From the IMG/VR virus record IMGVR_UViG_3300005511_000021: a stretch of DNA of 42,797 nucleotides; one strand, given 5' to 3'. The notes under the pieces are model-generated. The model did not search any database, was not told where the DNA came from, and saw only the letters and a program-made list of their open reading frames with translations. Of this stretch, positions 5,576 through 39,682 are shown piece after piece. The stretch comes from a virus. The position numbers and the translations under genes were made by a program. How positions within the stretch are numbered: position 1 is the first letter of the stretch; every line of letters begins with the position of its first letter.

Positions 5576-6457
5576 TCAGCGCTTGTTGATCCATTTCGCG
5601 AAGTCCTCCATCGGCATCTTCTCCGGCGGCACGCGACCTGCCGTGGCCTTGGCGGCGACGGTTTCGAGTGGCTTGGGAACGATGGTGGTGGTTGGCTTCG
5701 GCTGTGCGGTCTTCTGCATCATTGCCTGATGGCCGAGATGGGCGAGGAAGAGGATTTCATAGGTCTGCGGGCTGTAGGCGTTCTGCAACGCTTCACGCGT
5801 AAAACCCTTGCCGAGTGCGAATTCCGTGATCTTCTTGTCCATGTCCTCGGTCCAGCCGGGGATGCTCTTTTCCGCAAACGCGCGTGTTTCCCGAAGTCGA
5901 TTGGCAGTTTCCTGCTTCGCTTTTTCGGACAGTTCGTTTGTCGTGTGTGTCAGGTAACCAGCGACCTGACCGCGCTCTTCCTTCAGCGTCTGGTAGTTCC
6001 GCCAGTGCGACATGGCCGCCATGGGGTCTTCCTGCTCAAGCTGCTGCCAATTGACGCCTTCGTATTGCTTCAACTGGGAATCGAGGTGATGAATGTGGGC
6101 TTTCGCCTCGATCACCTCCTGCGACGTCTGGAAGATCCGATCGGCTTCAGCGCGCTTTGCCTCTACGGCTTTGCGCTCCTCCGCGACTTCCTGGGTCTTC
6201 CGGGTGTAATCCTGCTGGCGAAGAAGCGCGTCCTTCAGTTCAGCTGGGATTTTGTGCTTCTTCCCGTCGTAGTCGACCTCGACAAGCTCGGGCTCTTGTG
6301 GTTCGCCTTCGCCTTCTTGGCCTTCCGCGCCCTCTGCTTCAGTCGTAGTTTCCTCGGTCTCGACGTCAGAAACTGCTTTGTCTGCCGTGTTGGTCTGCTG
6401 TTCTCCGCCTGCAGGCATAGCCTGTGCTTCGGCAACAGCCGTCAAAGCCTCATCCAT
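5576..6457 (-). CDS. Scaffolding protein
   Basis: 293 aa, very acidic and helical/coiled-coil composition, between portal and coat. GGAG Shine-Dalgarno. Confidence 0.8.
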   Translation of the reverse strand: MDEALTAVAEAQAMPAGGEQQTNTADKAVSDVETEETTTEAEGAEGQEGEGEPQEPELVEVDYDGKKHKIPAELKDALLRQQDYTRKTQEVAEERKAVEAKRAEADRIFQTSQEVIEAKAHIHHLDSQLKQYEGVNWQQLEQEDPMAAMSHWRNYQTLKEERGQVAGYLTHTTNELSEKAKQETANRLRETRAFAEKSIPGWTEDMDKKITEFALGKGFTREALQNAYSPQTYEILFLAHLGHQAMMQKTAQPKPTTTIVPKPLETVAAKATAGRVPPEKMPMEDFAKWINKR

Positions 6458-6502
6458 AGAGGTTCACTCCGTTTTCCGGTTGGTGATAGGGAATTGCGCC
6501 GC

Positions 6503-8557
6503 TTACCCTTGGCGCGTGGGAGCTTGTAAGGCCTGATTGGCCTTGGCGATGCTTGATTGATGGGCCTGTTCGGCCTTCTGAGCGACGGTCAAAGCGTGCG
6601 TCGTCACCTTTGTTTCTGCGTCCTGCCGAATCCTTATAGCTTCGTTGCGAAGGTCACCTTCGACCTCCATCCGCTTCGTGTCGGCGTTGAACTGGTCGAT
6701 GCTCTTATCGGCTTCCAGCGCCTGGACCTTCTGCGTCAGTTCCTGAATGGCCTGCTGACCATCTTGGATCATCTGCTGCACTTCAGGCGGCAAACCCTGC
6801 TGTTGCTTCAGCGCAGGGTTGATCGCCTTCAGACGCTCGGCAATCTCTTCAGCACCTGGCCAATCGAGGTTCTTCGCCAGAATGTCACCGATAACAGGAG
6901 CGGCATCCGGGAACGCCCGAACAAACTCAGTCATCTGGTAGGCAGCCTCTTCGCGGCGTGTGGTGAAGCTCGGGCCAGTGGTGACGGTGAGATCGTATTT
7001 GCCGGTCGTCAGGCTGTAGACGCCCTGAAGCGTCTCGCCTTGAGCGGTGACGACCGGCTGGCCATTCTGGTCAAGCTGCGGCTTCGGCTCTTGCGCGTTG
7101 ATAGTAGCGGCGCGCTGTGAGCCGTCTTCGCCGATCACGCGGATAATGCGCTCATTGGTATAGACCTTCGGAATCATGTCGATCAGGATGCGACCGGTAT
7201 GGCGAATGGCGCGCGACAGGTTGTCGATGAAGTGGAATGTCGCAACATCCCCTTCCCGCTGGCGAGCCATGATGGCCTTGCCGCTGGTTTCGTTCGAACG
7301 AGCACCAAGCGAAGCGTCATAGATGCCCATGATCGATTTCATGTCGTCGGAAGAGTTCAAAGCCTCCTGCAGAGCGCCGGCCGCCGGCCCGCTGTCTAGC
7401 GGGATGCGCTGTGGCGCGTCGCTATCATATTCAAGATAGGCGTGGCTTGTCGTGTTCGCCGTTGCCCAATTGCTCGCGTCACTGTCAAATGTGCCCTTGC
7501 GGCCGATCCATGGCGTCTTCGGCGCCAGCGCAACAAGTTCTGTCGACGTGGTACGCCAATAGTTGAACATGCGCTGCGCATCCTTGGCCCCGTGAATGAG
7601 GCTTCGGAAATAGCGCTTGCCCTCAACTATGATCTCGTCGCCATAGACGGGGACGATCGGGATATAGCAGCCGAGCCAGTCGTTCGTCTTGATGACGTCG
7701 GCGCCGGTCATGATGTATTGCGTGACCTTGTGCGACTTGGCCTCGCGTTCGCGCTGGACCTGAATCACGCCGTTATTGATCAAGACCATCGTCATCGGGT
7801 CTGACTTGATCAGATCCTCGTCGACAATGCGCCCGTCCGAGAGCAGGACGATTTTCTTGGTGGTCTCTTCGCGCTTCCACCATTCGCCGATCAGCACCGT
7901 CTTGTCATCGAGCCAATCGTTCGAGCGGTCCCACGCATCACTGTCGAAATCGATGGCGACGTCATCATCCTCGATGTTCTTCGCGCCCTTGTATTTGCGC
8001 TTGAACTCCTCTCGGCTGAGGCGGTCAACGATGAAGGCGCTGTTCCAGTCGGACGAATCCGCTTCCGTGCTGTCAGGGTCACCATAGACCGAGAACTGGT
8101 TCGAGACGCGCTTGATGCAGAGATCGAGGTCGAAACTGTCGGCATAGGCGTAATCGAGGCCGATTCTCCAATAGCCGAAGCCGCCTGAGACGCTGGCCTC
8201 GATCGCCGTGTCATAGGCAACATCGGCATTCGAGGTATATTCGATATTGCGGATCAGGCCGTTCATCACGTCGGCGGTGTGAACATCGGCGGCGCTATCG
8301 ACAGGATGCACCTTGATCGATGGCTTGTTCTGTCTGCTATCGTTGACGACCTGGCGAATGAAGGCCGGCATCTTGTTGATGGTCAGGCACGGCCGCTGCT
8401 CGATCTCGCGCTGCTTGACGATCTGCGCCGGCCATTGCTCTTCGAGGCGGGAAAACCTGATATCGTCGAGCGCCGTCATGCGGTTCTCGTTCTCAAAGTC
8501 AGAGACGCGCTGAAACGCTTCTTTGGCTTCGGTCAGGATGTCTTCCATATCAGCCAT
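6503..8557 (-). CDS. Portal protein (P22-type)
   Basis: 684 aa directly after terL. N-terminal DDIRFSRLEEQWP...RPCLTINKMPAFIRQVVNDSRQNKPSIKV pattern of P22-like portals. Long helical C-terminal barrel region. Confidence 0.9.
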   Translation of the reverse strand: MADMEDILTEAKEAFQRVSDFENENRMTALDDIRFSRLEEQWPAQIVKQREIEQRPCLTINKMPAFIRQVVNDSRQNKPSIKVHPVDSAADVHTADVMNGLIRNIEYTSNADVAYDTAIEASVSGGFGYWRIGLDYAYADSFDLDLCIKRVSNQFSVYGDPDSTEADSSDWNSAFIVDRLSREEFKRKYKGAKNIEDDDVAIDFDSDAWDRSNDWLDDKTVLIGEWWKREETTKKIVLLSDGRIVDEDLIKSDPMTMVLINNGVIQVQREREAKSHKVTQYIMTGADVIKTNDWLGCYIPIVPVYGDEIIVEGKRYFRSLIHGAKDAQRMFNYWRTTSTELVALAPKTPWIGRKGTFDSDASNWATANTTSHAYLEYDSDAPQRIPLDSGPAAGALQEALNSSDDMKSIMGIYDASLGARSNETSGKAIMARQREGDVATFHFIDNLSRAIRHTGRILIDMIPKVYTNERIIRVIGEDGSQRAATINAQEPKPQLDQNGQPVVTAQGETLQGVYSLTTGKYDLTVTTGPSFTTRREEAAYQMTEFVRAFPDAAPVIGDILAKNLDWPGAEEIAERLKAINPALKQQQGLPPEVQQMIQDGQQAIQELTQKVQALEADKSIDQFNADTKRMEVEGDLRNEAIRIRQDAETKVTTHALTVAQKAEQAHQSSIAKANQALQAPTRQG

Positions 8558-8560
8558 GAA

Positions 8561-9859
8561 TCATCCCATCCAGCCGCCGGCGACCGCGTTGCGCGGATCC
8601 TGCTTCTTCTTTGCTATAGGCTCTTCGTAGACGACGCAGCCGAGGCCAAAGCCATCCGCACCATGAGAGGCCCAATCGTGCTCAGGACCGAGGCCGATGC
8701 CCCGAGCCTCGTCTTTCTTTTCGTGATACCAGCCGAGAGCGGCGCGTCCCGCTTCTGTCGTGTCGGCGTTGAACCACATGTTCGGGAACAGCCTGCGGGC
8801 AGCTTCGATGCGAGCCGCAGCAGCGCCTTTGCCTTGGTTGGGGACCACCGTCACTCGATAGCCTGCATCACGCAGAGCGCTTTCGTAGGAGACGTCATAA
8901 ACCTTGTCGTTGGTTGAGCCGTCGTGTGGCAACCAGAATTGCGCGCGATCGGGCGTGTAGCCTTTGGACCTGCACCAGTTGAGATGGGCTGCGAGCGGCT
9001 GGCCTACAGCTTCGTAATAATCGAGCCAGCGGATTTCCTTGCCGATGAACTGGCAGGCCCAGATCGTGAAGGCGTCGGCCTTTGCACCCGTCCCGCCAAT
9101 GTCGCAGATCAGCCGAATAGTCATCAGCGGGTCAGCGGCCACCCTGCCTATGCGGCCTTCGTTCTTGGCGTCTGCAAGGTGTTTGGCGAAATATGCGCCG
9201 GCCGCCACGGTCAAATATCCACCTTCCCAGATATGGTCGTATTGATCGGGCTGCATGCGAAGGCAGTCGAGACGTTCCTGTTCAAGCTCAGGAGTGAGCC
9301 ATGGGTTGTCCCGCCAATTGGCGGTGACCAGCACCGAACCTGTCGGCTTTTCCTCGCCACACATCATCACGTCGACAGGATCAACCTTGCGGCGCGGGTT
9401 CCAGCTGAACCAGATCTCGGAGCCAGGTGCGCGGATCGTCGGCCGAAGAAGGTTCAGGGACCGCATCGAGGCTGTCTGCGCTTCCTCCCACCAAGCGCGC
9501 TTGAAGCCTTCGAGCGACTTGATCGATTCCGCTGTGTGATCCTGCATCCCCTGGAAGATGATCGCACCATCTCCTGGCGTTTCGATCGTATCGCGGAAGA
9601 CTTTGAACCCATCCGGTTCACCTAGGCGGAAATCTGCGAGCTTGCTTTCCAGCAGGCGCTTGGATGAGTCCGCGAGGGTTTTCTGGACTTCACGAATGCA
9701 GACAGAAAGCATCCCGCGCTCTGCAAGATGATCCTCGATCATCAGGCCGCCGAAGAAATGGCTTTTCCCTGAACCGCGCCCGCCCTTTGCGCCTTTGTAT
9801 CGAGATGGGGTTAGGAGAGGTTCGAAGACCTCAGCTGTTGGTATCTGGAGCGTTCGCAC
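8561..9859 (-). CDS. terL: Terminase large subunit (PBSX/Terminase_3-like)
   Basis: 432 aa, Walker A GGRGSGKSH near the N-terminus, C-terminal nuclease-type region. The start codon in the track is GTG at 9859. Confidence 0.92.
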   Translation of the reverse strand: MRTLQIPTAEVFEPLLTPSRYKGAKGGRGSGKSHFFGGLMIEDHLAERGMLSVCIREVQKTLADSSKRLLESKLADFRLGEPDGFKVFRDTIETPGDGAIIFQGMQDHTAESIKSLEGFKRAWWEEAQTASMRSLNLLRPTIRAPGSEIWFSWNPRRKVDPVDVMMCGEEKPTGSVLVTANWRDNPWLTPELEQERLDCLRMQPDQYDHIWEGGYLTVAAGAYFAKHLADAKNEGRIGRVAADPLMTIRLICDIGGTGAKADAFTIWACQFIGKEIRWLDYYEAVGQPLAAHLNWCRSKGYTPDRAQFWLPHDGSTNDKVYDVSYESALRDAGYRVTVVPNQGKGAAAARIEAARRLFPNMWFNADTTEAGRAALGWYHEKKDEARGIGLGPEHDWASHGADGFGLGCVVYEEPIAKKKQDPRNAVAGGWMG

Positions 9860-10118
9860 GGACTATGTGGCGTTCGATACGGTGAATGACCTCAAGCGGG
9901 TTCTCTTCATCGCCGACGATGGCTTGCGGCGACTTCCCGTCCATTCGGTCAGCAAGCTCTTTGATTGCATCAAGCTTGCCCTCTTCCGCAGCAGAGATCA
10001 GCTTCTTGGCGATGAGGCGAAGCCCACGCTGGTCAAGCTCAGCTGCGGCGAGTTCAATCCTGAGAGCATCGCGAAAGGGCTTTTCCTGCTTGCGCCCGCT
10101 GTTTGCATTGCCGGCCAT
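9831..10118 (-). CDS. terS: Terminase small subunit candidate
   Basis: Internal ATG at 10118 gives 95 aa starting MAGNANSGRKQEKPF, typical of small terminases. Overlaps the terL start by 29 nt. Confidence 0.65.
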   Translation of the reverse strand: MAGNANSGRKQEKPFRDALRIELAAAELDQRGLRLIAKKLISAAEEGKLDAIKELADRMDGKSPQAIVGDEENPLEVIHRIERHIVRANAPDTNS

Positions 10119-10193
10119 TTTAAAATGACCATCCGATTGATTTGAAAGCCATGTGCTGCACTCCCTTTCAGGTTGGTGCAAAATGTAATTGTG

Positions 10194-10457
10194 TTACGCC
10201 AGAGCGATGATGTTAGTCGCCGTTGTGCCAGTGAGGAGAACCATCTTCGTACGCACTGGGATGATCTGACCAGCCAGGACACCGGTTATCGTGACGTCGG
10301 CGAGTTTATCTGTTGCCGGGTCGAATGCCCGCACTGCAATGTTGCCGGCGCCACCAACGAAGATAGCGCGGGTGTGCTTTTTCAGTTCTGCACTATCGCT
10401 GGGTGTGACAGCCCACACGTAGCCTGCCGGCTTGATCTCGTCGATGCCGCTTGCCAT
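10194..10457 (-). CDS. Small beta-rich protein resembling the RcGTA head-spike base family (RCAP_rcc01079-like)
   Basis: 87 aa. VTPSDSAELKKHTRAIFVGGAGNIAV...GVLAGQIIPVRTKMVLLTGTTATNIIAL matches my recollection of that family. AGGAGA Shine-Dalgarno. Confidence 0.6.
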   Translation of the reverse strand: MASGIDEIKPAGYVWAVTPSDSAELKKHTRAIFVGGAGNIAVRAFDPATDKLADVTITGVLAGQIIPVRTKMVLLTGTTATNIIALA

Positions 10458-10473
10458 ATGGATTTCTCCTGAA

Positions 10474-10501
10474 TTGACTTCCCGTAGTTACGGGATAGAA
10501 T
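10474..10501 (+). promoter_or_regulatory. Sigma70-type promoter for the brnA-like gene
   Basis: TTGACT (10474..10479), 16-nt spacer, TAGAAT (10496..10501), about 30 nt upstream of ATG 10531. Confidence 0.55.
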
Positions 10502-10513
10502 GCCGTAGTTACG
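10482..10513 (+). promoter_or_regulatory. Two 11-bp direct repeats CCGTAGTTACG (candidate operator)
   Basis: Copies at 10482..10492 and 10503..10513, 21 bp centre to centre. They overlap the promoter spacer and the region just after the -10. Confidence 0.5.
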
Positions 10514-10530
10514 AAATTGCGAGGAATGCC

Positions 10531-10803
10531 ATGGCCATCAAATTCACAAACGGCCCAGAGAAATTTCAGGCTCGAAAAGAGCAGTTGAGGTCAGAAAACA
10601 AAGTGATGTCATCTATCCTGCAGCATACCGCTGACGGGACATTGAAGGCTCCGAAGACCAAAAGCGGCAGAAAGCCAGATCCAAATGCCAAGAAGCTCTT
10701 GACGCTTCGCCTTGATCCTCAGGTGATTGAGCATTTCAGATCTACCGGCGAAGGCTGGCAAACCCGCATGAACGAGGCGCTGCGAAAGGCTGCCGGCCTA
10801 TAG
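10531..10803 (+). CDS. brnA: BrnA-family antitoxin-like protein, orphan (no BrnT gene present)
   Basis: 90 aa. C-terminal KKLLTLRLDPQVIEHFRSTGEGWQTRMNEALRKA matches the BrnA signature (RLD..V...F...G.GWQTRiN.aLr). Opposite strand to all neighbours. Confidence 0.75.
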   Translation: MAIKFTNGPEKFQARKEQLRSENKVMSSILQHTADGTLKAPKTKSGRKPDPNAKKLLTLRLDPQVIEHFRSTGEGWQTRMNEALRKAAGL

Positions 10804-11001
10804 CGCGCTATTTTTGTTGAGATACTGCTCGCCTCGCTGAAACCCAGCAGCCGGCTTCTTCTCCAGCATCTCAGGAAGAGCCCGCAACAGATCCTCAGTC
10901 GAGGAAAATGCATAAATGGGCCACAAAGACCCATCATTCACGCCTTCCGAGAGTACCCATCCACCGTTGTTGGCTCGTCTCAGGGTGAAATCGTTGTTCA
11001 T
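10798..11001 (-). CDS. Hypothetical protein
   Basis: 67-aa ORF in the late-operon leader block. Converges on the brnA-like gene with a 6-nt overlap. Confidence 0.6.
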   Translation of the reverse strand: MNNDFTLRRANNGGWVLSEGVNDGSLWPIYAFSSTEDLLRALPEMLEKKPAAGFQRGEQYLNKNSAL

Positions 11002-11010
11002 AGCGCGCGC

Positions 11011-11229
11011 CTATATCTCTTTGGGTACGATCGATCTTGCATCAGCTGGCGAAGCGCCGCCTTGCGGGAAGTCCTCGGGGTGAACCTTCTTCCATTCGAC
11101 CCAGAATGCCGATGGGTGCAGATGAGCGAGCTTGCGGAATAGCTCAAGATCCTTGGATCTCAGAGCCTTGAGGAGCGGCAGGAACGGGCTTGGCTGAGAT
11201 TCTTCGTGCCTGATGGTGATCTGCATCAT
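11011..11229 (-). CDS. Hypothetical protein
   Basis: 72-aa ORF on the same strand as the operon. Confidence 0.6.
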   Translation of the reverse strand: MMQITIRHEESQPSPFLPLLKALRSKDLELFRKLAHLHPSAFWVEWKKVHPEDFPQGGASPADARSIVPKEI

Positions 11230-11269
11230 ATGAAATTCTCATATTGCTGGCGGCAGATCAACCGATCGC

Positions 11270-11407
11270 TCACAGCGCTCTCCACAATCCTTCACCGGGC
11301 GGTTCGTACCGTGTCTGGCACCCCGACAGAACGAAAGCAGCAGCAAGAGCAGCAATGACGATGGTGAGCCAGATGAGGCCGCGGGAATAGCGCTTCCAGA
11401 AGGTCAT
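11270..11407 (-). CDS. Micro-lipoprotein (45-aa precursor, about 16-aa mature)
   Basis: My translation is MTFWKRYSRGLIWLTIVIAALAAAFVLSGCQTRYEPPGEGLWRAL. It has a signal peptide plus the lipobox L-S-G-C. ATGA-coupled to the upstream gene. Below the ORF-track size cutoff. Confidence 0.5.
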   Translation of the reverse strand: MTFWKRYSRGLIWLTIVIAALAAAFVLSGCQTRYEPPGEGLWRAL

Positions 11408-11637
11408 GCTGCTAACTCGTCGACCCGGCGCAGGATATCGTGGCCGAACTCAGTTATCACCCAGCGCCGAGGATTCATTACGCATTGGATCATCCCAGCC
11501 TTTCGTAGCTGCTGGCGGATTCGGTCCTGCTTCCGATCGGCCGTTGGGAGCCATAGCCCATTCCTCAGCCGGTTTATGAAATCCATGTGGGCGTCGGTCA
11601 AATCCATTTCATGACCTCGGAATGAAGAGCCCGCCAT
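11404..11637 (-). CDS. Hypothetical protein
   Basis: 77-aa ORF. The alternative ATG at 11607 has a GAGG Shine-Dalgarno and would give 67 aa. Ends in LAA. Confidence 0.65.
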   Translation of the reverse strand: MAGSSFRGHEMDLTDAHMDFINRLRNGLWLPTADRKQDRIRQQLRKAGMIQCVMNPRRWVITEFGHDILRRVDELAA

Positions 11638-11769
11638 CCGGGTTTATCCGGTGACGGGCTGGGACTGGCTTGGGAAACTCCAGAGACAGTTCTTCTATGC
11701 GCTGGCTGTGAGCACCAGCAGAGACGCGGCGAAATCCGCAACAGAACCGTCTCGCAAATCACTGCCGAC

Positions 11770-11797
11770 ATATTAACCAAATCATTGTTAATGGCAA
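11770..11797 (-). promoter_or_regulatory. Candidate late promoter on the minus strand
   Basis: Minus strand reads TTGCCA (11797..11792), 16-nt spacer, TAATAT (11775..11770). It lies in an AT-rich 174-bp gap just downstream of the NusG-like gene. Confidence 0.45.
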
Positions 11798-11811
11798 GCG
11801 GGTTCAAACGG

Positions 11812-12423
11812 TTAGCTCGCCATATCCACAAGGTCGATCGGTATCTCTGCGTTTGCGAGTCCGTTTAGCCTCTCGATGATGACCTTGATCGTATTCCGCC
11901 CTGTGGCTGCGACGATGGTTGCACGGCGGCCGGCGAACAGCCTATGCTCCTTGCTGATGGTGACGACGCCGCCTGCTGGGAACTGTTCAGCGGCGACACG
12001 TCTGGTCACCTTGCGCAGCCGTTGCTCTTCCTGATAGGCCCTGAGCGCCTTGTGGTACTCATACAGATCGCGAAGGCTGGTCTCTGCCATCTGGATTAGG
12101 TCGATCTGGGCAGTTGGGAGCGGGATCGGTGTTCCCCCTACCCCGATGATCGAAGCGACGAAATCGCATTCGGCGACCTTCTTCCAGTTCTGTTCGTCCG
12201 GTATGGCCCGCATGAAGGCATAGCCAGGGATCAGCGGGAAGCGCTTGTCGATCGTCTTCTTTGTACGATGGTGGATCTTCATCGCCAGTTCCATCGGCAT
12301 GTAGTAGTCTATCCCCTCACGCTTCAGTGACCATTCGATATTTGTGATGCGCTCATCGTGCCTGTATGGCCGTGACGCTCCTGGCTTGAGCCTCAACGCG
12401 TACCAAGAAGTCTTGCCGCCCAT
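11812..12423 (-). CDS. NusG/RfaH-family transcription antitermination factor paralog
   Basis: 203 aa. NGN domain (WYALRLKPG...FPLIPGYAFMR...IIGVGGTPIPLP) and C-terminal KOW (FPAGGVVTISKEHRLFAGRRATIV) separated by a roughly 50-aa helical insert. Confidence 0.8.
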   Translation of the reverse strand: MGGKTSWYALRLKPGASRPYRHDERITNIEWSLKREGIDYYMPMELAMKIHHRTKKTIDKRFPLIPGYAFMRAIPDEQNWKKVAECDFVASIIGVGGTPIPLPTAQIDLIQMAETSLRDLYEYHKALRAYQEEQRLRKVTRRVAAEQFPAGGVVTISKEHRLFAGRRATIVAATGRNTIKVIIERLNGLANAEIPIDLVDMAS

Positions 12424-31584: not shown

Positions 31585-34104
31585 TTATGCTACTTGGGGA
31601 AGAACCGGATGGTTCACGTCCCGAGCCAACAGCTTCGTGCGCAGTGTCGAATAGTCAACGTCCTGCACGTTCGCTGTCGCGTCGATCGCCATGGAAGCGA
31701 TAACGCCGGCCGCCTCGCCCTTGAGGCCGCCTGTCGGCTCCAGCCTACCCATATACCAGCAAAGGATCGTGCAGGAAGATCCCCACGGCACGACGACGTT
31801 CGTCTTTACCCCAACATCGGGAACGATCTCCTCAAGCGGTACAGGGGCCATCTTGTCGGCGCCGGCCACCAGCGAGCCGGGAACGCTGCCCTGCGTGTAT
31901 AGGAGGCCACCAGAGGCCACCTTCCACGGGGGATGCTTGTCGCAGTCATAGCTCGTCACGGCAATCGTCTTGTCGGATCTGAGAGCCGAGCCATCGACCT
32001 TGCAATAATCCTGCGCCGTCGAGACGTAGCCGGTGTTTTTCAGGCGCCAGATCGGATCGCGCTGATACGGGCGGTTCGGCCAGAACAGCAAGCCGCCGGG
32101 ACCGGGATCGAGGAACGTGCCTGCGTCGAGCCCGAGCGCTTGGAACTGTGTCACAAGAGTTCCGGGGATGCGGCCGTCCCCGGAGTTGGCGTGCCACCAG
32201 AACCAACCAAGCTGGTAGTCCCGAAGGTCATCGATCACGGCCAACTGCGCCGCACGGTTTGCCGCTGTGGCGTACCGATAGCCGCTGCCCGGCAAGTCGG
32301 TGGAGAGGCCGCCAGAACCGTTGTTCACGTCCATCTTGTTTGTCGAGCCACCAACCGCGAACTGCAGGATGGTGGTGGTGACCGCCGGATTGCCGATCGT
32401 AACGCCGGGGTTAAGGACATAGGCGCGAGCCGCGGTCTCGTAGCGAAGCGAATTGTAATTCCGATGCGGGTCCATGGTCGTCACTGGAACCATGCGGGCC
32501 ACGTCGGTCGTCATCGCAAGGCGATAGTTCATACTCTCGATCGACGGATCGACGCCATCAACGGTCAAGCCGGGCAGAGGCATTTCGCCCTGGATATCCG
32601 GCAGAAGACCGGACGCCTGGACGCCATCCGTGATGTAGGGGCTGATATCCGAGCCATAGGGCTTGCTCATCGAGCCGGATCCCTTGTAGCCGTTGTTGGC
32701 TTCGGAACCTGCGCCTGCAGCCTCGCTGCCCGTAAAGGTCGGGATGCCGGCCGACTTGTGGATATATTCGCCATCATAGTCCGCGGCGATGAACTGCCGA
32801 GCCGTGAATGTCCGCCCGTCGTTGGTCTTCAGCGCCGTGTCCTTCAGGCCGACCGATGTGATGGATTGGATACCGGTGGAGAAGTAGACCGGGATATCCT
32901 GCCCGAGAATGAGCGTTCCGTTCGTCCGTGCTGGGTCGAGCATGCGCCGAACGCCCTGGACGAACTGCCAGCTTTCGATCGAGTTACCCGTTTGCGTGTT
33001 GGTGTCCGCCCGGTTGATGATCGTGCTATTGGCCCAGGATGTGAGGTCTCGATAGAGTCCCTTCAGCGCCGTGAAGTTATAGCAGTCGACATAGGCCAGA
33101 CCGGATGCCGGCATGCCGCCGATATCCCAATCGGTTTTGGCGAGGTCGTCGAGCACCATGCAGACGGTCTTGCCTTCCTGCTTGGCGGCGTAGGCGGCAG
33201 AAACCCCTGTCCAGCTTGCGCCATAGACAACAACGTCATAATCGGCCGTCGTTGGGGCTTTGCCAGCGTCGTAGTAGTCGACCATGCCGAAGCGGATCTT
33301 GTAGTAATAATCCAGCAGGGCAGCACTGATCTCCATGCACTGGGCATCGGTCAGCCGCACCTTGAAGATGGCGAAGAGCCCGCAATCGTGCACGGACAGC
33401 GCGCCGCCGTTGATGCCGCCGAGATGGATGGTCGGATTGGTGGCAGGCGCGACATAGGTTGTGGACGGAGCTTCGCGCGTGATCCCGAATGTGTCGATGC
33501 TGTTCGAACGGAAGCTATACATGCCCTGGCCCGGGCTGATGGTCGCCGAAGTGGAAACGTAGTTCGCAGCCTGAAGACGCGCATTGATCTTGTTGGAGGC
33601 GTCCCGGATATTACCCCCGATGCCATCTGCGCCGGCCGTCTGCGCGCCGAAGTCACCGCTGCTGGCGGCGTTGCTGGACCGGGAATAGTAGAAGATCGTG
33701 AACTGGCCTTGGGCGAAGGTCTGCAGTCCGATGCCGGTGTTATATTTGGCTGTTGACAGCCAGCTTCCCCAGCGGTCGTTTGCCGTATAGGTCGGGACAC
33801 CCGCACCAGTCAGGGTCAGATCGTTCGTGCCGGGATGAAACTTGTTGACGCGGCTGTTGATTTCGGTCGGCGTGTCTGGCGAATACATGGCCAGGGCATC
33901 GGCCATGCTTACACCAGCGCCCTTGATGCGGACGATGAGCCGGTCAAAGGCAAGCTTCTGCCGTCTGGTCATCGGAATGCCGGCCGCCGTCTTCGACGTG
34001 TTGAGCGTATCGGTTTCCGTCTGGAACTGGAAATCCGGGAGCGATGTGCCCCCTCCTCCGCTTCTCACGCCTGTAAGGGCCAGGTTCAGTCCAAGCATGG
34101 TCAT
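31585..34104 (-). CDS. Tailspike-position protein: N-terminal virion/lectin-like region plus an FAD-dependent-oxidoreductase-type (PF12831-like) domain
   Basis: 839 aa. Dinucleotide-binding fingerprint DYDVVVYGASWTGVSAAYAAKQEGKTVCMVLDD around residue 290. C-terminal NVVVPWGSSCTILCWYMGRLEPTGGLKGEAAGVIASMAI resembles the closing segment of that family. Confidence 0.75.
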   Translation of the reverse strand: MTMLGLNLALTGVRSGGGGTSLPDFQFQTETDTLNTSKTAAGIPMTRRQKLAFDRLIVRIKGAGVSMADALAMYSPDTPTEINSRVNKFHPGTNDLTLTGAGVPTYTANDRWGSWLSTAKYNTGIGLQTFAQGQFTIFYYSRSSNAASSGDFGAQTAGADGIGGNIRDASNKINARLQAANYVSTSATISPGQGMYSFRSNSIDTFGITREAPSTTYVAPATNPTIHLGGINGGALSVHDCGLFAIFKVRLTDAQCMEISAALLDYYYKIRFGMVDYYDAGKAPTTADYDVVVYGASWTGVSAAYAAKQEGKTVCMVLDDLAKTDWDIGGMPASGLAYVDCYNFTALKGLYRDLTSWANSTIINRADTNTQTGNSIESWQFVQGVRRMLDPARTNGTLILGQDIPVYFSTGIQSITSVGLKDTALKTNDGRTFTARQFIAADYDGEYIHKSAGIPTFTGSEAAGAGSEANNGYKGSGSMSKPYGSDISPYITDGVQASGLLPDIQGEMPLPGLTVDGVDPSIESMNYRLAMTTDVARMVPVTTMDPHRNYNSLRYETAARAYVLNPGVTIGNPAVTTTILQFAVGGSTNKMDVNNGSGGLSTDLPGSGYRYATAANRAAQLAVIDDLRDYQLGWFWWHANSGDGRIPGTLVTQFQALGLDAGTFLDPGPGGLLFWPNRPYQRDPIWRLKNTGYVSTAQDYCKVDGSALRSDKTIAVTSYDCDKHPPWKVASGGLLYTQGSVPGSLVAGADKMAPVPLEEIVPDVGVKTNVVVPWGSSCTILCWYMGRLEPTGGLKGEAAGVIASMAIDATANVQDVDYSTLRTKLLARDVNHPVLPQVA

Positions 34105-34329: not shown

Positions 34330-34522
34330 TGGTTTTGCCTCGTTCTCGAATTAGATCCATCGATCGCTGAAGAGCAGCGGTGCGTTCTGCGTCCCTGCCC
34401 TCACTACGGGCCGCAGGAAGCCACCAGATAGCGTTTATGACGATCAGGATGGATGCGGAGGCTAAAGCCCCGGCAAGCGCTGCTGCGGGCAGCTTGAGGG
34501 CGTCAGGGATAAAGGAAAGCAT
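34244..34522 (-). CDS. i-spanin (Rz-like)
   Basis: 92 aa from the internal ATG 34522, which overlaps the endolysin TGA (ATGA). N-terminal TM LPAAALAGALASASILIVINAIWWL, then a charged periplasmic helix with C-terminal Cys residues. Confidence 0.7.
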   Translation of the reverse strand: MLSFIPDALKLPAAALAGALASASILIVINAIWWLPAARSEGRDAERTAALQRSMDLIRERGKTNAEIGKLSPADICRRLGGVWVPGDNLCE

Positions 34523-35211
34523 CAGTTCTTCATCCTGTCCCAGACGTATAGGCCGCCGCCGACAAGGCAGGCGATGACGAGGATGGCCGCGAGCGCGTAG
34601 GCGATCGGTCCATTGGTCGGAACGAACTGCAGTCCGCCACCAGACAGGAGCGCGGTCCCGGTGCTGAGCACCTTGCCGTTGATGAGCGGCGCGCGCTGCT
34701 TGTCGGCGATCGTGCCGGAAGACTGAACGAATGATCCCTCGGCCCAGAGCCCCGCCTCGGCCGCGCGCCGGTTGACAAGCCCCTGCATCGTCTTGCCCTT
34801 GGATTTCGTCCATTTGGCAAGCTCAGCCGGGACAGCGGCATAATTGCCGGTATTGAGCTTCTTCAGGAGCGTGGAAGATCGGAAGTTTGCTGCGCCGACG
34901 TTGAACGCAAAACTGACGAGAGCCGCAAACTGGTTGTCGTTGAGCGGAACCTTGACGCTGGCCTCTACGACAGCCTCGAACGCCGCCAGATCCTGATAGA
35001 GAAGATCGGTCGATTGCTGCGAGGTGATCGTCATGCCGGGGCGCACGTCGGGCCCAGTGTGCCCTACCCCGATTGTCAATGTTCCCTTGATCCTGTCGCC
35101 GCTCTTGATGCGGCGGCGATTGGATGGCGGGTCGAAGTCGTCATAGGCGAAGAGGATTTCCCCCTCCCACTGTTTAAGCTTCTGGATGCCATAAGCGCTG
35201 ATCTTGCGCAT
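34522..35211 (-). CDS. GH24 lysozyme (endolysin) with a C-terminal transmembrane helix
   Basis: WEGEILFAYDD...TLTIGVGHT carries the catalytic E/D/T pattern. C-terminal IAYALAAILVIACLVGGGLYVW. I prefer ATG 35211 (GGAGAGA Shine-Dalgarno), giving 229 aa. Confidence 0.88.
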   Translation of the reverse strand: MRKISAYGIQKLKQWEGEILFAYDDFDPPSNRRRIKSGDRIKGTLTIGVGHTGPDVRPGMTITSQQSTDLLYQDLAAFEAVVEASVKVPLNDNQFAALVSFAFNVGAANFRSSTLLKKLNTGNYAAVPAELAKWTKSKGKTMQGLVNRRAAEAGLWAEGSFVQSSGTIADKQRAPLINGKVLSTGTALLSGGGLQFVPTNGPIAYALAAILVIACLVGGGLYVWDRMKN

Positions 35212-35318
35212 GGGGTTTCTCTCCATTGGTGAAATAGGAAGGAGACTGCGCGCCAGTTGTGGACGAGCATGGAAGTCTCCAGATTGTCAGAAGATTCGCG
35301 TTAAGGTATGCATTGGGG

Positions 35319-36086
35319 ATGAAACTCATCCCGCTCTTGTTTTCAGCGCTGCTCTTTGCCTGCCAGGCGTTCGCCCAGGCTGGGCCGTCCGAGCCGCTTC
35401 TCGCCAAAATGATGGTCGCCCGGGACAGTTACGGAAGCGTGATCTTCACCTTTGGTGACAGCATCATGCGAGGCTATGCCCTCGGCTTCTTCCCGGACAG
35501 CTCGACGAAAGAACAGATGGACAATCCGGACTGGGAGCTTCGTTCCCCAGCCTCGCAGTTGCGCAGCCGTGGCTTCATGGCTGTCTACGCCGGCCTGAAC
35601 GGACAGCCTGATATGGTAGAGGATGGGGCAGAGTGGATTTCGGATCTCGTCAAGCGCGGCGTTATCCGCGATGGTGATGTGGTTGTGCTCGAAGACGCGG
35701 GACGCCACGACAAGGCCCCGATGGTATATTTCGACAACTGGTTGAAGATCGGCGCCGCGCTCAGGGGCGTTGATGTCAAGCTGATCATGATGACCATACC
35801 GGACGATATCAAATCCCCTGTTGTCGGTGGAGAACCTGCCGACCTATACCGCTATTCCATCGATTTCGGAGGGGTGAGCTATAACGATGCGACGACCTTT
35901 GCGGCCCATGTCCTCGGTGCCAAGCTTATTGACCTCAAAACCATGATAAACGAGGTCACGAAATCGGGGTATACCGTCCTGCATGATGACGGGATACATC
36001 AGAACATCAAAGGACAGACAATCATGGTGGATGCAATCATCCAAGAATGCACTGGCTCATATACTGGAAAGCACGCAGCGCGTTGA
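35319..36086 (+). CDS. Secreted SGNH/GDSL-family esterase (moron; opposite strand to the late operon)
   Basis: 255 aa from ATG 35319. Sec signal MKLIPLLFSALLFACQAFAQA. Block I FTFGDSIMRGYALG. Catalytic DDGIHQN. Confidence 0.85.
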   Translation: MKLIPLLFSALLFACQAFAQAGPSEPLLAKMMVARDSYGSVIFTFGDSIMRGYALGFFPDSSTKEQMDNPDWELRSPASQLRSRGFMAVYAGLNGQPDMVEDGAEWISDLVKRGVIRDGDVVVLEDAGRHDKAPMVYFDNWLKIGAALRGVDVKLIMMTIPDDIKSPVVGGEPADLYRYSIDFGGVSYNDATTFAAHVLGAKLIDLKTMINEVTKSGYTVLHDDGIHQNIKGQTIMVDAIIQECTGSYTGKHAAR

Positions 36087-36861
36087 AGGTCGTCGAGCCG
36101 TATTTCAGTTGGGCATATTGCGTATATGCGAGGTTCTTCAGCCCATTGCAGTCATTGATATAGGGCCGATACTGAAGCGCCTTGAGCAGTTCCCCCACCA
36201 TGAGGGCCTGCCCCCAGACATTCGGATGAATGTCGTCAGGATGCATCACATCAACGTTGTCGACTGATTTTGCCGATGACCGCCAGTTGTCCATTGCTGT
36301 CTTCATGTCGATCCAAAGCGTCTGGCCTCGCTCGTTCGGAATGGTCGCCTGATAGGCGGCCACGGTAGCGGCATTCATTGTGCGCTGATTGGGTGCCGTT
36401 CCGAAGAGGGTGCTGTACTGGCTGTCAGCCGCGGCATTCGGATAGCTGAACATGCTCATCATGACCAACGTGATATCGAAGCGGTCAACCACGGCGGCGC
36501 GGAACTGCTCCCATTGGCTTTGGTAGAGGTCAGGATCTTGGTTGTGCGGGCCGGCGTCTTCTGCCACGACAACATCGCCGCTGCGAATGGTTCCGTTGGC
36601 GACTAGGGCGCGGATAGAGGCAACCGTGGTCGATATGTCGGAACTGAGATTGACCGCGGGAATCCCAGTGTAATTGAATTCGTCTCGAATGCCGTTCTCG
36701 TAAAGCACGTTGTTTGCCATAGACGATATCGAGGCAAACAGCAGAATCGCATTCCGCGGGTCGCTTGGACCATTGGCGATGATCTGCTCGCTATATGCCC
36801 CGAGAGCATAGCCTTTCGAAAGGCTGTCGCCGATGAGATGGATGTGCCTGCGGTGCGTCAT
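36037..36861 (-). CDS. SGNH/GDSL-family esterase without a signal peptide, in the late operon next to the fibre gene
   Basis: 274 aa. IHLIGDSLSKGYALG, VVVAEDAGPHNQ, MHPDDIHPN. Clearly a paralog of 35319..36086. Confidence 0.85.
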   Translation of the reverse strand: MTHRRHIHLIGDSLSKGYALGAYSEQIIANGPSDPRNAILLFASISSMANNVLYENGIRDEFNYTGIPAVNLSSDISTTVASIRALVANGTIRSGDVVVAEDAGPHNQDPDLYQSQWEQFRAAVVDRFDITLVMMSMFSYPNAAADSQYSTLFGTAPNQRTMNAATVAAYQATIPNERGQTLWIDMKTAMDNWRSSAKSVDNVDVMHPDDIHPNVWGQALMVGELLKALQYRPYINDCNGLKNLAYTQYAQLKYGSTTFNALRAFQYMSQCILG

Positions 36862-36869
36862 GGTTTCTC

Positions 36870-38042
36870 CTAGAGAGTGTCGTCGTGCCAGCCGAAGGTC
36901 TCAATCTGGCGCTGGGAAACTGTGCCCGCGGCGATTGTCAGCGCCTGGTAGATCTGCCGGTTTGTGTTTGAGACGAAAGCGTCAATAACGATGCGATCGG
37001 CCGCGAGGCCACCGGCTGCGGTCAAGGCTTGCTGAATGGTGAATACAGCCGAACCAATGTCGGCATCCCCGACCAGATAGACTACGTTTGTAGAAGCTGC
37101 GAGAACCAACTGAGAGCCGAATATGGGCCTCACTGAAATTCCGGCCGGGATTGAAAGAGTTATCGTTTCACTGGTGAATGCGGTTGCAACAGTGCTGTCG
37201 ATCTTTGGCGCATTGCGCAGAAAACGCTTGTTATATTGCTTGAATCCGACAATCGCCGCGCTCTCCCGGAGAATTGATCCTATTCGGCGCTTGCGGTCGT
37301 AGTTCGTCGGCATGGTCGGGGAAGTGGCAGAGGTAGAAAACAGGACGTCTACCACGCCGGTATCTGACCTCTGGATAAGCCAGACATGATAGGTCGTATT
37401 CGCGATAGAGCCAGTATCGAGACCTCCCTGGTTCGTGCCGACTGCCCAGGATGCATCGAGGCGCTTGGTCAGCGCAGAGGCAAGCGTCATGAGATATGGG
37501 GTTGTACCGTCACTTGCGGCCGATCCCACAGCAATATCGATGTCATTTGTGGCGTCAGAGCCATTATTCGAAAGCGTGAGACCATAACGATGGCCCTGGA
37601 TCGCCATACCAATCGTAGCTTCGCCAGAAATAGCCGCATAGAAGGCTGTTCCATTGCAGCGAATGACAGCGCGTTGACCGTTGAGGACGGTAATCGTCGT
37701 CAGCCCGTTGATCAGCTCTGAACCGTTCGGGTCGATCGTGACATCCCCGCCGGAAGCAACAACGATGTGCTCCCATCCATTGGTCAGGGTGGCTGCTGCC
37801 GTTAGCCCAAGGGTGGCGCTTGCCGTGAAGAGCGACACTTGATTGTGATCAGCCTTGACCGCTGTATAGCCGGCGCCGCGAGACGTGAAGCGGGAGACGA
37901 GGTTTGATGCCCCTTGCGCCATCAGCTCCCGGAAGGCGTTGTCGAAGTTATTGACGTTGTTGGAGCCCTGCACACCGATATTGTTGATATCGGTGTTGTT
38001 CGATGCGGTAGCATCCCATTCGAGGACGTTGCTCTTTGCCAT
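36870..38042 (-). CDS. Tail fibre protein
   Basis: 390 aa. The N-terminus VLEWDATASNNTDINNIGVQGSNNVNNFDNAFRELMAQ is typical of alphaproteobacterial phage/GTA fibre N-termini. Confidence 0.75.
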   Translation of the reverse strand: MAKSNVLEWDATASNNTDINNIGVQGSNNVNNFDNAFRELMAQGASNLVSRFTSRGAGYTAVKADHNQVSLFTASATLGLTAAATLTNGWEHIVVASGGDVTIDPNGSELINGLTTITVLNGQRAVIRCNGTAFYAAISGEATIGMAIQGHRYGLTLSNNGSDATNDIDIAVGSAASDGTTPYLMTLASALTKRLDASWAVGTNQGGLDTGSIANTTYHVWLIQRSDTGVVDVLFSTSATSPTMPTNYDRKRRIGSILRESAAIVGFKQYNKRFLRNAPKIDSTVATAFTSETITLSIPAGISVRPIFGSQLVLAASTNVVYLVGDADIGSAVFTIQQALTAAGGLAADRIVIDAFVSNTNRQIYQALTIAAGTVSQRQIETFGWHDDTL

Positions 38043-39484: not shown

Positions 39485-39682
39485 TTGGACGATAAGTTTG
39501 CGAAGCAAGTGGACCTGCACGAAAGCGAGTGGTCCAAAGCCGGGAAGAAAGAACCCTTTTGGGGTCCGGGGGCCTACTGGTTTTTCAACGTAACACTGCC
39601 GACGCTGGTTATTACGATTGCGCTGGCCTACGGCTTCGATTTTATCTTCGGCGCATCACTTGGCTCGCCGTTCCAGAGGTGA
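39485..39682 (+). CDS. Possible small membrane protein antisense to the virion operon
   Basis: 65 codons from TTG 39485, with AAGGAAG 6 nt upstream. TM segment YWFFNVTLPTLVITIALAYGFDFIF. GC3 about 69 percent by my count. It fills a 212-bp gap in the minus-strand operon. Confidence 0.45.
   Translation: MDDKFAKQVDLHESEWSKAGKKEPFWGPGAYWFFNVTLPTLVITIALAYGFDFIFGASLGSPFQR

Follow-up and report, generated by a model that had tools for sequence, protein, structure and literature searches.

The viral DNA recorded in IMG/VR as IMGVR_UViG_3300005511_000021 (42,797 nucleotides, analysed as a whole and hereafter called the window) carries two convergent genes for paralogous proteins of the SGNH fold, type A and type B, which meet between the receptor-binding and lysis genes of a temperate podophage. 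Our preferred reading, which we hold tentatively and place somewhat short of an even chance, is that type B is a late receptor-processing esterase and type A a prophage-expressed periplasmic glycan deacylase that converts the surface of the lysogen. Read in this way, the pair would constitute a two-gene cassette for the editing of acyl groups on surface glycans, lodged where the receptor-binding module of temperate Rhizobium phages adjoins the lysis module. Type B would be made together with the fibre and would act outside the cytoplasm on an acylated polysaccharide of the host envelope, delivered on or with the fibre or else released at lysis. Type A would be a moron with its own conserved upstream element, exported by the Sec pathway to the periplasm of the lysogen, where it would most likely remove an acyl group from a nascent surface glycan, be it exopolysaccharide (EPS), capsule or O-antigen, and the resulting surface conversion would lower adsorption of this phage and its kin. 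The esterase activity, the substrate, the timing of expression, the association with the virion and the effect on adsorption are all things that we infer.

An initial annotation of this region, made from the nucleotide sequence, had described a convergent, overlapping pair of SGNH paralogues, the minus-strand copy devoid of a signal peptide and directly behind the fibre gene in the late operon, the plus-strand copy equipped with a Sec signal and antisense to that operon, and in these respects it stands. The open reading frames (ORFs) and their translations place the type A hydrolase (P0001, 255 aa) at 35319..36086 on the plus strand, antisense to the late operon, and the type B hydrolase (P0002, 274 aa) at 36037..36861 on the minus strand, which is the late strand; the 3' ends of the two genes overlap by 50 bp (36037..36086, both strands). 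P0001 and P0002 share 29% identity over 244 columns (BLASTP, E 7e-17), a resemblance that is far beyond chance and points to paralogy, and all three motif blocks cited in the annotation are present: GDSIMRGYALG in P0001 and GDSLSKGYALG in P0002, then GVIRDGDVVVLEDAGRH and GTIRSGDVVVAEDAGPH, and finally DDGIHQNIKGQTIMV and PDDIHPNVWGQALMV, respectively. The Ser/Asp/His triad is intact in both proteins, encoded in the type A gene by the codons for Ser48 (35460-35462), Asp224 (35988-35990) and His227 (35997-35999) on the plus strand, and in the type B gene by those for Ser13 (36823-36825), Asp209 (36235-36237) and His212 (36226-36228) on the minus strand. The GC content at third codon positions is ~0.68 in both genes, the same as in the rest of the phage. 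The further claim that type A is the only plus-strand gene of the region is good for substantial genes, from ~31.0 to 42.8 kb, and fails for a 65-codon plus-strand ORF at 39485..39682.

Assignment to the SGNH fold comes chiefly from structure prediction. AlphaFold models built on a 26-sequence family alignment reach a mean predicted local distance difference test score (pLDDT) of 88 for P0001 and of 93 for P0002, the latter a single compact domain with a predicted template modelling score of 0.92. Both models match the three-layer alpha/beta/alpha, flavodoxin-like fold of solved SGNH enzymes, and their top Foldseek matches in the PDB are all SGNH/GDSL enzymes at probability 1.0, among them the acetylxylan esterase Axe2, TesA, PatB, OatA, Ape1 and rhamnogalacturonan and mannan acetylesterases. 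When P0002 is compared with viral models, the matches are SGNH domains of tail spikes, for example those of Pectobacterium phage PP99 (a deacetylase), K30, KPP21, LIT1 and Sf12. The catalytic blocks agree with the models: the GDS of Block I (S48 in P0001, S13 in P0002) is invariant in 26 of 26 aligned members, and the DxxH of Block V, which reads DGIH in P0001 (D224, H227) and DDIH in P0002 (D209, H212), has an invariant His and an Asp conserved in at least 90% of the same sequences. Curated families scarcely register the two proteins. P0001 scores 17.2 bits for GDSL in Pfam, below the gathering cut-offs of 23.6 and 32.9 for Lipase_GDSL and Lipase_GDSL_2, P0002 has no Pfam GDSL match, neither protein has a meaningful match in PHROGs or NCBIfam, and neither found a match by tblastn among 50,697 GenBank phages. 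An exhaustive profile search gathers 362 representatives of the family at E<=1e-3 and 175 at E<=1e-10, and the homologues of P0001 form 15 clusters, nearly all from Rhizobium. We therefore regard P0001 and P0002, on the strength of sequence and models, as SGNH-fold proteins of a divergent family that has no curated model, and as putative esterases.

Predicted export distinguishes the two paralogues of the window. Translation of type A most probably begins at the ATG at 35319, which is common to its homologues (all begin MKLI...); an in-frame GTG upstream, at 35259, is not conserved. The first 19 residues of P0001 (35319-35375, plus strand) have the look of a signal peptide on inspection: the N-terminus, MKLIPLLFSALLFACQAFA followed by QA, combines a basic n-region, a 12-residue hydrophobic core and an A-x-A cleavage site, and can be parsed as MK for the n-region, LIPLLFSALLFA for the h-region and CQAFA for the signal-peptidase site, with cleavage before QA. 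The leader is kept in homologues, and residues 1-17 have low AlphaFold confidence, as expected of a leader. The protein had been called secreted; the Sec-type signal bears out export, and the term is best narrowed to predicted Sec export to the periplasm. An LFAC motif made P0001 a candidate lipoprotein, which we rejected because the leader Cys is not conserved in homologues. Some members of the type B subfamily (P0055, P0058, P0064 and P0067) carry twin-arginine-like leaders (RR.FLAG...), which suggests that part of that subfamily uses the twin-arginine route rather than Sec.

The same convergent layout, a signal-less copy on the late strand facing a signal-bearing antisense copy, recurs in seven loci (the window, L001, L002, L003, L009, L011 and L013), and these span podovirus-type Rhizobium prophages with VanY and ejection genes, myovirus-type prophages with baseplate wedge and sheath initiator genes, and prophages of other types. 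Elsewhere the antisense, signal-bearing copy stands alone, converging on a large fibre or spike gene in L015, L017 and L027 and heading a longer antisense run in L016, and in L006, L018 and L025 a signal-bearing copy lies on the late strand with no antisense partner. Type A is thus found on the opposite strand to the late operon, between the receptor-binding and endolysin genes, in 11 of 11 loci with context, with a type B partner in seven of them; this orientation, together with the integrase of the window phage, is what one looks for in a moron. A maximum-likelihood tree of 100 family members divides them into two groups with 99% support, a subfamily A that contains every antisense copy and is mostly signal-bearing, and a subfamily B that contains every late-strand copy and in which the signal peptide has been gained or lost at least five times. 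A recent tandem duplication or inversion as the origin of the pair was rejected in view of so deep a split. Across the five loci compared, identity is 80-88% among the late copies, 51-89% among the antisense copies and 44-91% among the C-terminal domains of the fibres, with no common pattern, and this discordance argues for mosaic exchange. The plus-strand gene had been cast as a copy of the phage's own tool, an idea that we abandon in view of the ancient split between the subfamilies and their independent assortment: as far as these comparisons reach, the pair is a recurrent combination of two old paralogues. Both genes are selectively maintained, under purifying selection, with dN/dS of 0.10-0.25 for type A and 0.04-0.16 for type B, at values of dS that are mostly >1 (saturated).

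It is the convergent orientation that is conserved, not the overlap. The two genes overlap by 50 bp in five loci (the window, L001, L002, L009 and L011), by 8 bp in L003, and are separated by a 10-bp gap in L013, so the 50-bp overlap that the initial annotation had put forward is not a conserved feature of the pair. Where the genes overlap, the model of P0001 shows a disordered tail (pLDDT <50), which the homologues P0016 and P0020 lack, and P0002 ends in a C-terminal helix packed with high confidence (pLDDT 96-98). The overlap was considered as a functionally required or selected device and rejected, since its length varies between loci and the overprinted tail is disordered; we take it to be incidental, best read as a type A reading frame that extends into the 3' end of type B.

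A conserved, promoter-like element lies immediately upstream of type A. The block GATTGTCAGAAGATTCGCGTTAAGGTATGCAT (35282..35313, plus strand) has the form TTGTCA-N17-TATGCA, ends 5 nt before the ATG and is unique within the window. Over 32-42 nt it is ~90% identical in the window, L002, L009, L011 and L017, set in coding DNA with dS >1.4, and it is partly retained in L003; a search with the element as a pattern returned the L017 contig alone from IMG/VR and nothing from the GTDB species genomes. There is no canonical Shine-Dalgarno sequence before the type A ATG, and a leaderless or very short-leader transcript is possible.

What the two slots hold in relatives of the phage also bears on function. 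In Rhizobium phage RHph_N3_2 (L029), a 264-aa right-handed beta-helix protein of the NosD type, without an anchor domain, follows the homologous fibre (7196-7990) in place of type B, and the position behind the fibre therefore looks like an exchangeable slot for glycan enzymes. More telling for type A is L016 (IMGVR_UViG_3300009765_000030), where a type A orthologue (66% identity with P0001) is followed, between the lysozyme and a beta-helix spike and all on the antisense strand (5995-12334), by an MBOAT gene, a gene for a 353-aa membrane-anchored protein that matches no family, a second MBOAT gene and an AlgX-family acetyltransferase gene, the whole run converging on the spike gene. A metagenome scan returned a single locus, seemingly the same prophage again, with the same 66% match. 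To judge from its gene content, the run is a candidate double conversion island for surface-polysaccharide O-acetylation; the antisense slot would therefore carry surface-glycan acylation cargo, and the island links type A with the acylation of a glycan outside the cytoplasm as well as with cargo expressed from the prophage.

The closest parallel to type A among known systems is in Pseudomonas phage JBD44, where the two-gene O-antigen acetylation system gp40-gp41, an 'anti-Kronos' superinfection-exclusion system, sits between tail spike and endolysin, and where its deletion lowers free progeny about 10^4-fold through re-adsorption to lysogens (bioRxiv 10.1101/2024.03.05.583538). That system occupies the same slot as type A and edits the acylation of the receptor glycan, and L016 even has MBOAT and AlgX genes there. 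JBD44, however, adds an acetyl group by means of two genes, whereas in the window the putative exported SGNH-fold enzyme stands by itself, accompanied by a late paralogue and by no acyl-donor gene. Epsilon15 supplies a second parallel, since it too is a temperate podophage with an SGNH deacetylase in its late receptor-binding apparatus, and the O-antigen of its lysogens lacks acetyl (the classical O10 to O15 conversion), which amounts to a de-acetylated receptor glycan on the lysogen. There the esterase is a domain of a trimeric tailspike, however, and the loss of acetyl from the lysogen is attributed to a blocked host acetyltransferase, not to an exported esterase paralogue. The SGNH esterase resides in the petal domain of the epsilon15 tailspike, and Fig. 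1b of the paper on that tailspike shows the O10 repeat, 6-O-acetylated, next to the O-antigen that the strain has after lysogenisation (bioRxiv 10.64898/2026.07.31.742079). Mutants of Escherichia coli 4s that have lost O-acetylation are fully resistant to the esterase-spike phage G7C (PMC10743462), and erasure of the mark is therefore a plausible route to exclusion.

In its strongest form our reading would have the type A enzyme of the prophage strip from nascent surface polysaccharide exactly the acyl group on which adsorption by way of the fibre or type B depends; the phage and its kin would then no longer recognise the lysogens, and no progeny would be lost to siblings. Such an 'erase the receptor mark' system in temperate Rhizobium phages strikes us as possible but on the unlikely side. 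In the literature that we searched we found no description of receptor erasure by an esterase paralogue, as opposed to an acetyltransferase or an inhibitor, nor of an esterase that a prophage exports and that has a late esterase as its paralogous partner. Surface-conversion morons are known already, as are phage esterases that act on glycans, and the pairing of exported and late esterase paralogues is a variant on these. Esterases with which phages recognise or strip the acyl marks of surface glycans are increasingly seen as major determinants of host range in temperate phages, and prophage genes that rewrite such marks decide who superinfects a lysogen and how many progeny survive. If type A does erase a mark used by the late apparatus of the same phage, it would add a hydrolytic route to serotype conversion and self-exclusion, beside the known acetyltransferase, glucosyltransferase and inhibitor routes. 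The cassette itself is small and modular and would make a convenient experimental system in laboratory Rhizobium strains. The acylation of EPS and lipopolysaccharide (LPS) in rhizobia also affects legume symbiosis, and prophages of this kind could therefore change symbiotic or biofilm traits.

Position and export by themselves have a precedent in bor of phage lambda, which lies next to the lysis genes, runs in the direction opposite to the late operon and encodes an exported lipoprotein expressed in the lysogen. Type A resembles it as an exported moron antisense to the late operon near the lysis genes, and differs in that Bor is a lipoprotein with no enzymatic fold.

At the same time, several observations weigh against the reading that we prefer, and the first of them concern type B. 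P0002 begins at the catalytic strand, with GDS at residues 11-13, and has no N-terminal module for particle binding, trimerisation or anchoring. The virion SGNH deacetylases with which it may be compared, namely G7C gp63.1, the PP99 tail spike and the receptor-binding proteins of Klebsiella prophages, share its fold, its position in the receptor-binding module and structural similarity to it (PMC10743462, PMC13123978). They are multidomain and usually trimeric, however, with particle-binding N-termini, and the viral proteins that match P0002 by fold have 430-1170 aa, as against the single 274-aa domain of P0002. Some subfamily B members carry Sec signals, and three signal-bearing members (L006, L018 and L025) are on the late strand; because a signal is incompatible with assembly into virions, the association of P0002 with the virion is, on this comparison of sequences, doubtful. 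SGNH receptor-binding proteins are prevalent in Klebsiella prophages, and stand-alone SGNH genes occur beside receptor-binding genes there too (PMC13123978). In L023, a signal-less family member lies directly after an S74-type tail fibre.

Other observations of this kind concern type A and the family as a whole. The G-x-N-D of Block III is absent, the position after strand 3 (121-124 in the model) reading EDAG.H in every member, and the invariant Asn (N189) sits after strand 4 rather than at Block III, so that, with EDAG.H in place of the Asn, the enzymes may use an atypical chemistry. In L016, the MBOAT neighbours raise the possibility that type A works in acyl transfer. A scan for sigma-70 consensus promoters and terminators gave nothing above shuffled sequences for the type A gene, and the other strand of the conserved upstream block contains a GGAG ribosome site and the first codons of a divergent first lysis gene. 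Since the block carries this start of a lysis gene, it may also be a recombination boundary. Ancient paralogy and discordant divergence argue against tight co-specificity of the two enzymes for one substrate. Finally, the family is rare, with a member in 2 of 401 Rhizobiaceae species genomes, and is therefore sporadic mobile cargo.

Of the alternatives, the one that fares best, although we consider it unlikely, is that type A serves the host and is unconnected with phage receptors. Here the enzyme would trim acyl groups (acetyl, 3-hydroxybutanoyl or succinyl) from EPS, LPS or periplasmic glucans, with consequences for biofilm, symbiosis or nutrient use, and its place beside type B would reflect a hot spot for morons. 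The independent assortment of types A and B speaks for such a model, as does the occurrence of type A without type B in L015, L017, L027 and L016, and the antisense slot does hold unrelated cargo in relatives. In L006 (8995-9612, P0027) and L001 (about 9790-10400) that cargo is an HNH/HTH-like, Cys-rich protein of 205-230 aa with a C-terminal tail resembling a helix-turn-helix, which looks like an insertion of the homing-endonuclease type, and in RHph_N3_2 it is an unrelated 86-aa gene (7987-8247), antisense before the lysozyme and overlapping the beta-helix gene by 4 bp. A similar role has been proposed for the NanS-p esterases of Shiga toxin (Stx) prophages, which resemble type A as prophage-borne glycan acetyl-esterases, although phi24B gp84, one of them, is encoded on the late strand and proved to decorate the capsid. 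A hot-spot effect, however, sits uneasily with the constancy of the neighbourhood, type A adjoining receptor-binding genes in all 11 loci and having a type B partner in seven, and the tested occupant of the equivalent slot in JBD44 is an exclusion system.

Somewhat less probable again, in our judgement, is a model in which both enzymes are accessories of lysis or release that remove O-acyl groups from peptidoglycan or capsule, thereby allowing the endolysin to cut or progeny to get clear of debris. Holin lesions would give type B access to its substrate, Sec doing so in its signal-bearing relatives, and type A would be an exported helper made early or late, not a gene of lysogeny. In keeping with this, the endolysin gene adjoins type A at every locus, subfamily B alternates between members with and without a signal peptide in the manner of endolysins, and Ape1, PatB and OatA are among the fold matches. 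Yet these peptidoglycan enzymes match no better than other SGNH esterases, no MBOAT gene (PatA-type) was found in the two host genomes G001 and G235, and type B always follows the fibre, its place being taken in RHph_N3_2 by a beta-helix protein. Type A, moreover, is antisense to the late operon that includes the lysis genes, and the order of that operon obliges the late transcript to read through ~0.8 kb antisense to P0001 to reach them.

Peptidoglycan and alginate metabolism also furnish the precedent for the remaining alternative, PatA (MBOAT), PatB (an SGNH transferase) and Ape1 (an SGNH esterase) forming the O-acetylpeptidoglycan cluster, with AlgI/J/F/X as its alginate counterpart. Such systems resemble the present one in using periplasmic SGNH-fold enzymes to write or erase O-acyl groups, and in L016 a putative esterase lies beside MBOAT/AlgX-type genes much as it does there; P0001 and P0002 are not members of them at the level of sequence, however (E 1e-3 or worse), and belong to a phage context rather than to cell-wall metabolism. 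That type A is itself the periplasmic SGNH partner of an acyl-transferase (of the PatB, AlgX, WssF or OafB-SGNH type), adding in the lysogen a group that late type B removes so that the phage can penetrate decorated cells, would accord with the L016 run, with the non-canonical Asn of Block III and with the matches to PatB and OatA, but it is the least probable of the three alternatives, given that no MBOAT partner adjoins type A in 10 of the 11 loci or was seen in the window (AT3 was not searched for) or in either host genome, that the second L016 MBOAT at least has its own AlgX-family partner and so does not need type A for that transfer, and that the invariant residues are shared with signal-less cytoplasmic members, which cannot be periplasmic transferases.

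The phage that carries the pair is P22-like, temperate and of a Rhizobium-type host: the window encodes a P22-type portal (E 8e-198), a terminase, a NusG-like protein and a tyrosine integrase, and its only relatives at the nucleotide level among GenBank phages are the Rhizobium phages RHph_I1_23 and RHph_N3_2. Its late genes run on the minus strand in the order ejection-type proteins, M15/VanY peptidase, fibre-type protein, P0002, the antisense of P0001, GH24 endolysin, spanin-like genes and a gene for an 839-aa protein with lectin and FAD_oxidored domains. The fibre-type protein (390 aa; 36870..38042, minus strand), encoded directly upstream of the type B gene, has no match to a curated family but behaves in sequence comparisons as a modular fibre. 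Its N-terminal 137 aa are common to the Rhizobium podophages RHph_N3_2 and RHph_I1_23 and vary with phage type, and its C-terminal domain of ~240 aa is common to prophages of other morphotypes and has relatives in 42 GenBank phage records. An odd match across phyla is a stretch 60% identical to residues ~145-330 in Microcystis phage Mwe-JY13.

Downstream of the pair, the first intact late gene encodes the GH24 endolysin (34522..35226, minus strand; Pfam Phage_lysozyme, E 6e-43; PHROG endolysin). Between it and type A lies the remnant of a first lysis gene of the DUF7940 type, reduced to the eight codons of its 5' end (MLVHNWRA; 35246..35270, minus strand) and recognised by DNA and protein comparison with the DUF7940 gene of L002. 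In L002 this small membrane gene is intact before the lysozyme (9601-9855), and homology with the window breaks right after the eight codons, which indicates that the lysis cassette was swapped at this point; such a swap may explain the lack of a holin beside the endolysin of the window. The slot behind the lysis cassette is likewise variable in content and is occupied by different proteins of the glycan-enzyme kind, holding the lectin plus FAD_oxidored protein in the window (31585-34104), a Laminin_G_3 protein in L009 (4002-5402) and a canonical GDSL_2 SGNH protein of 394 aa in L002 (10885-12069), and L002 therefore has three SGNH-type genes.

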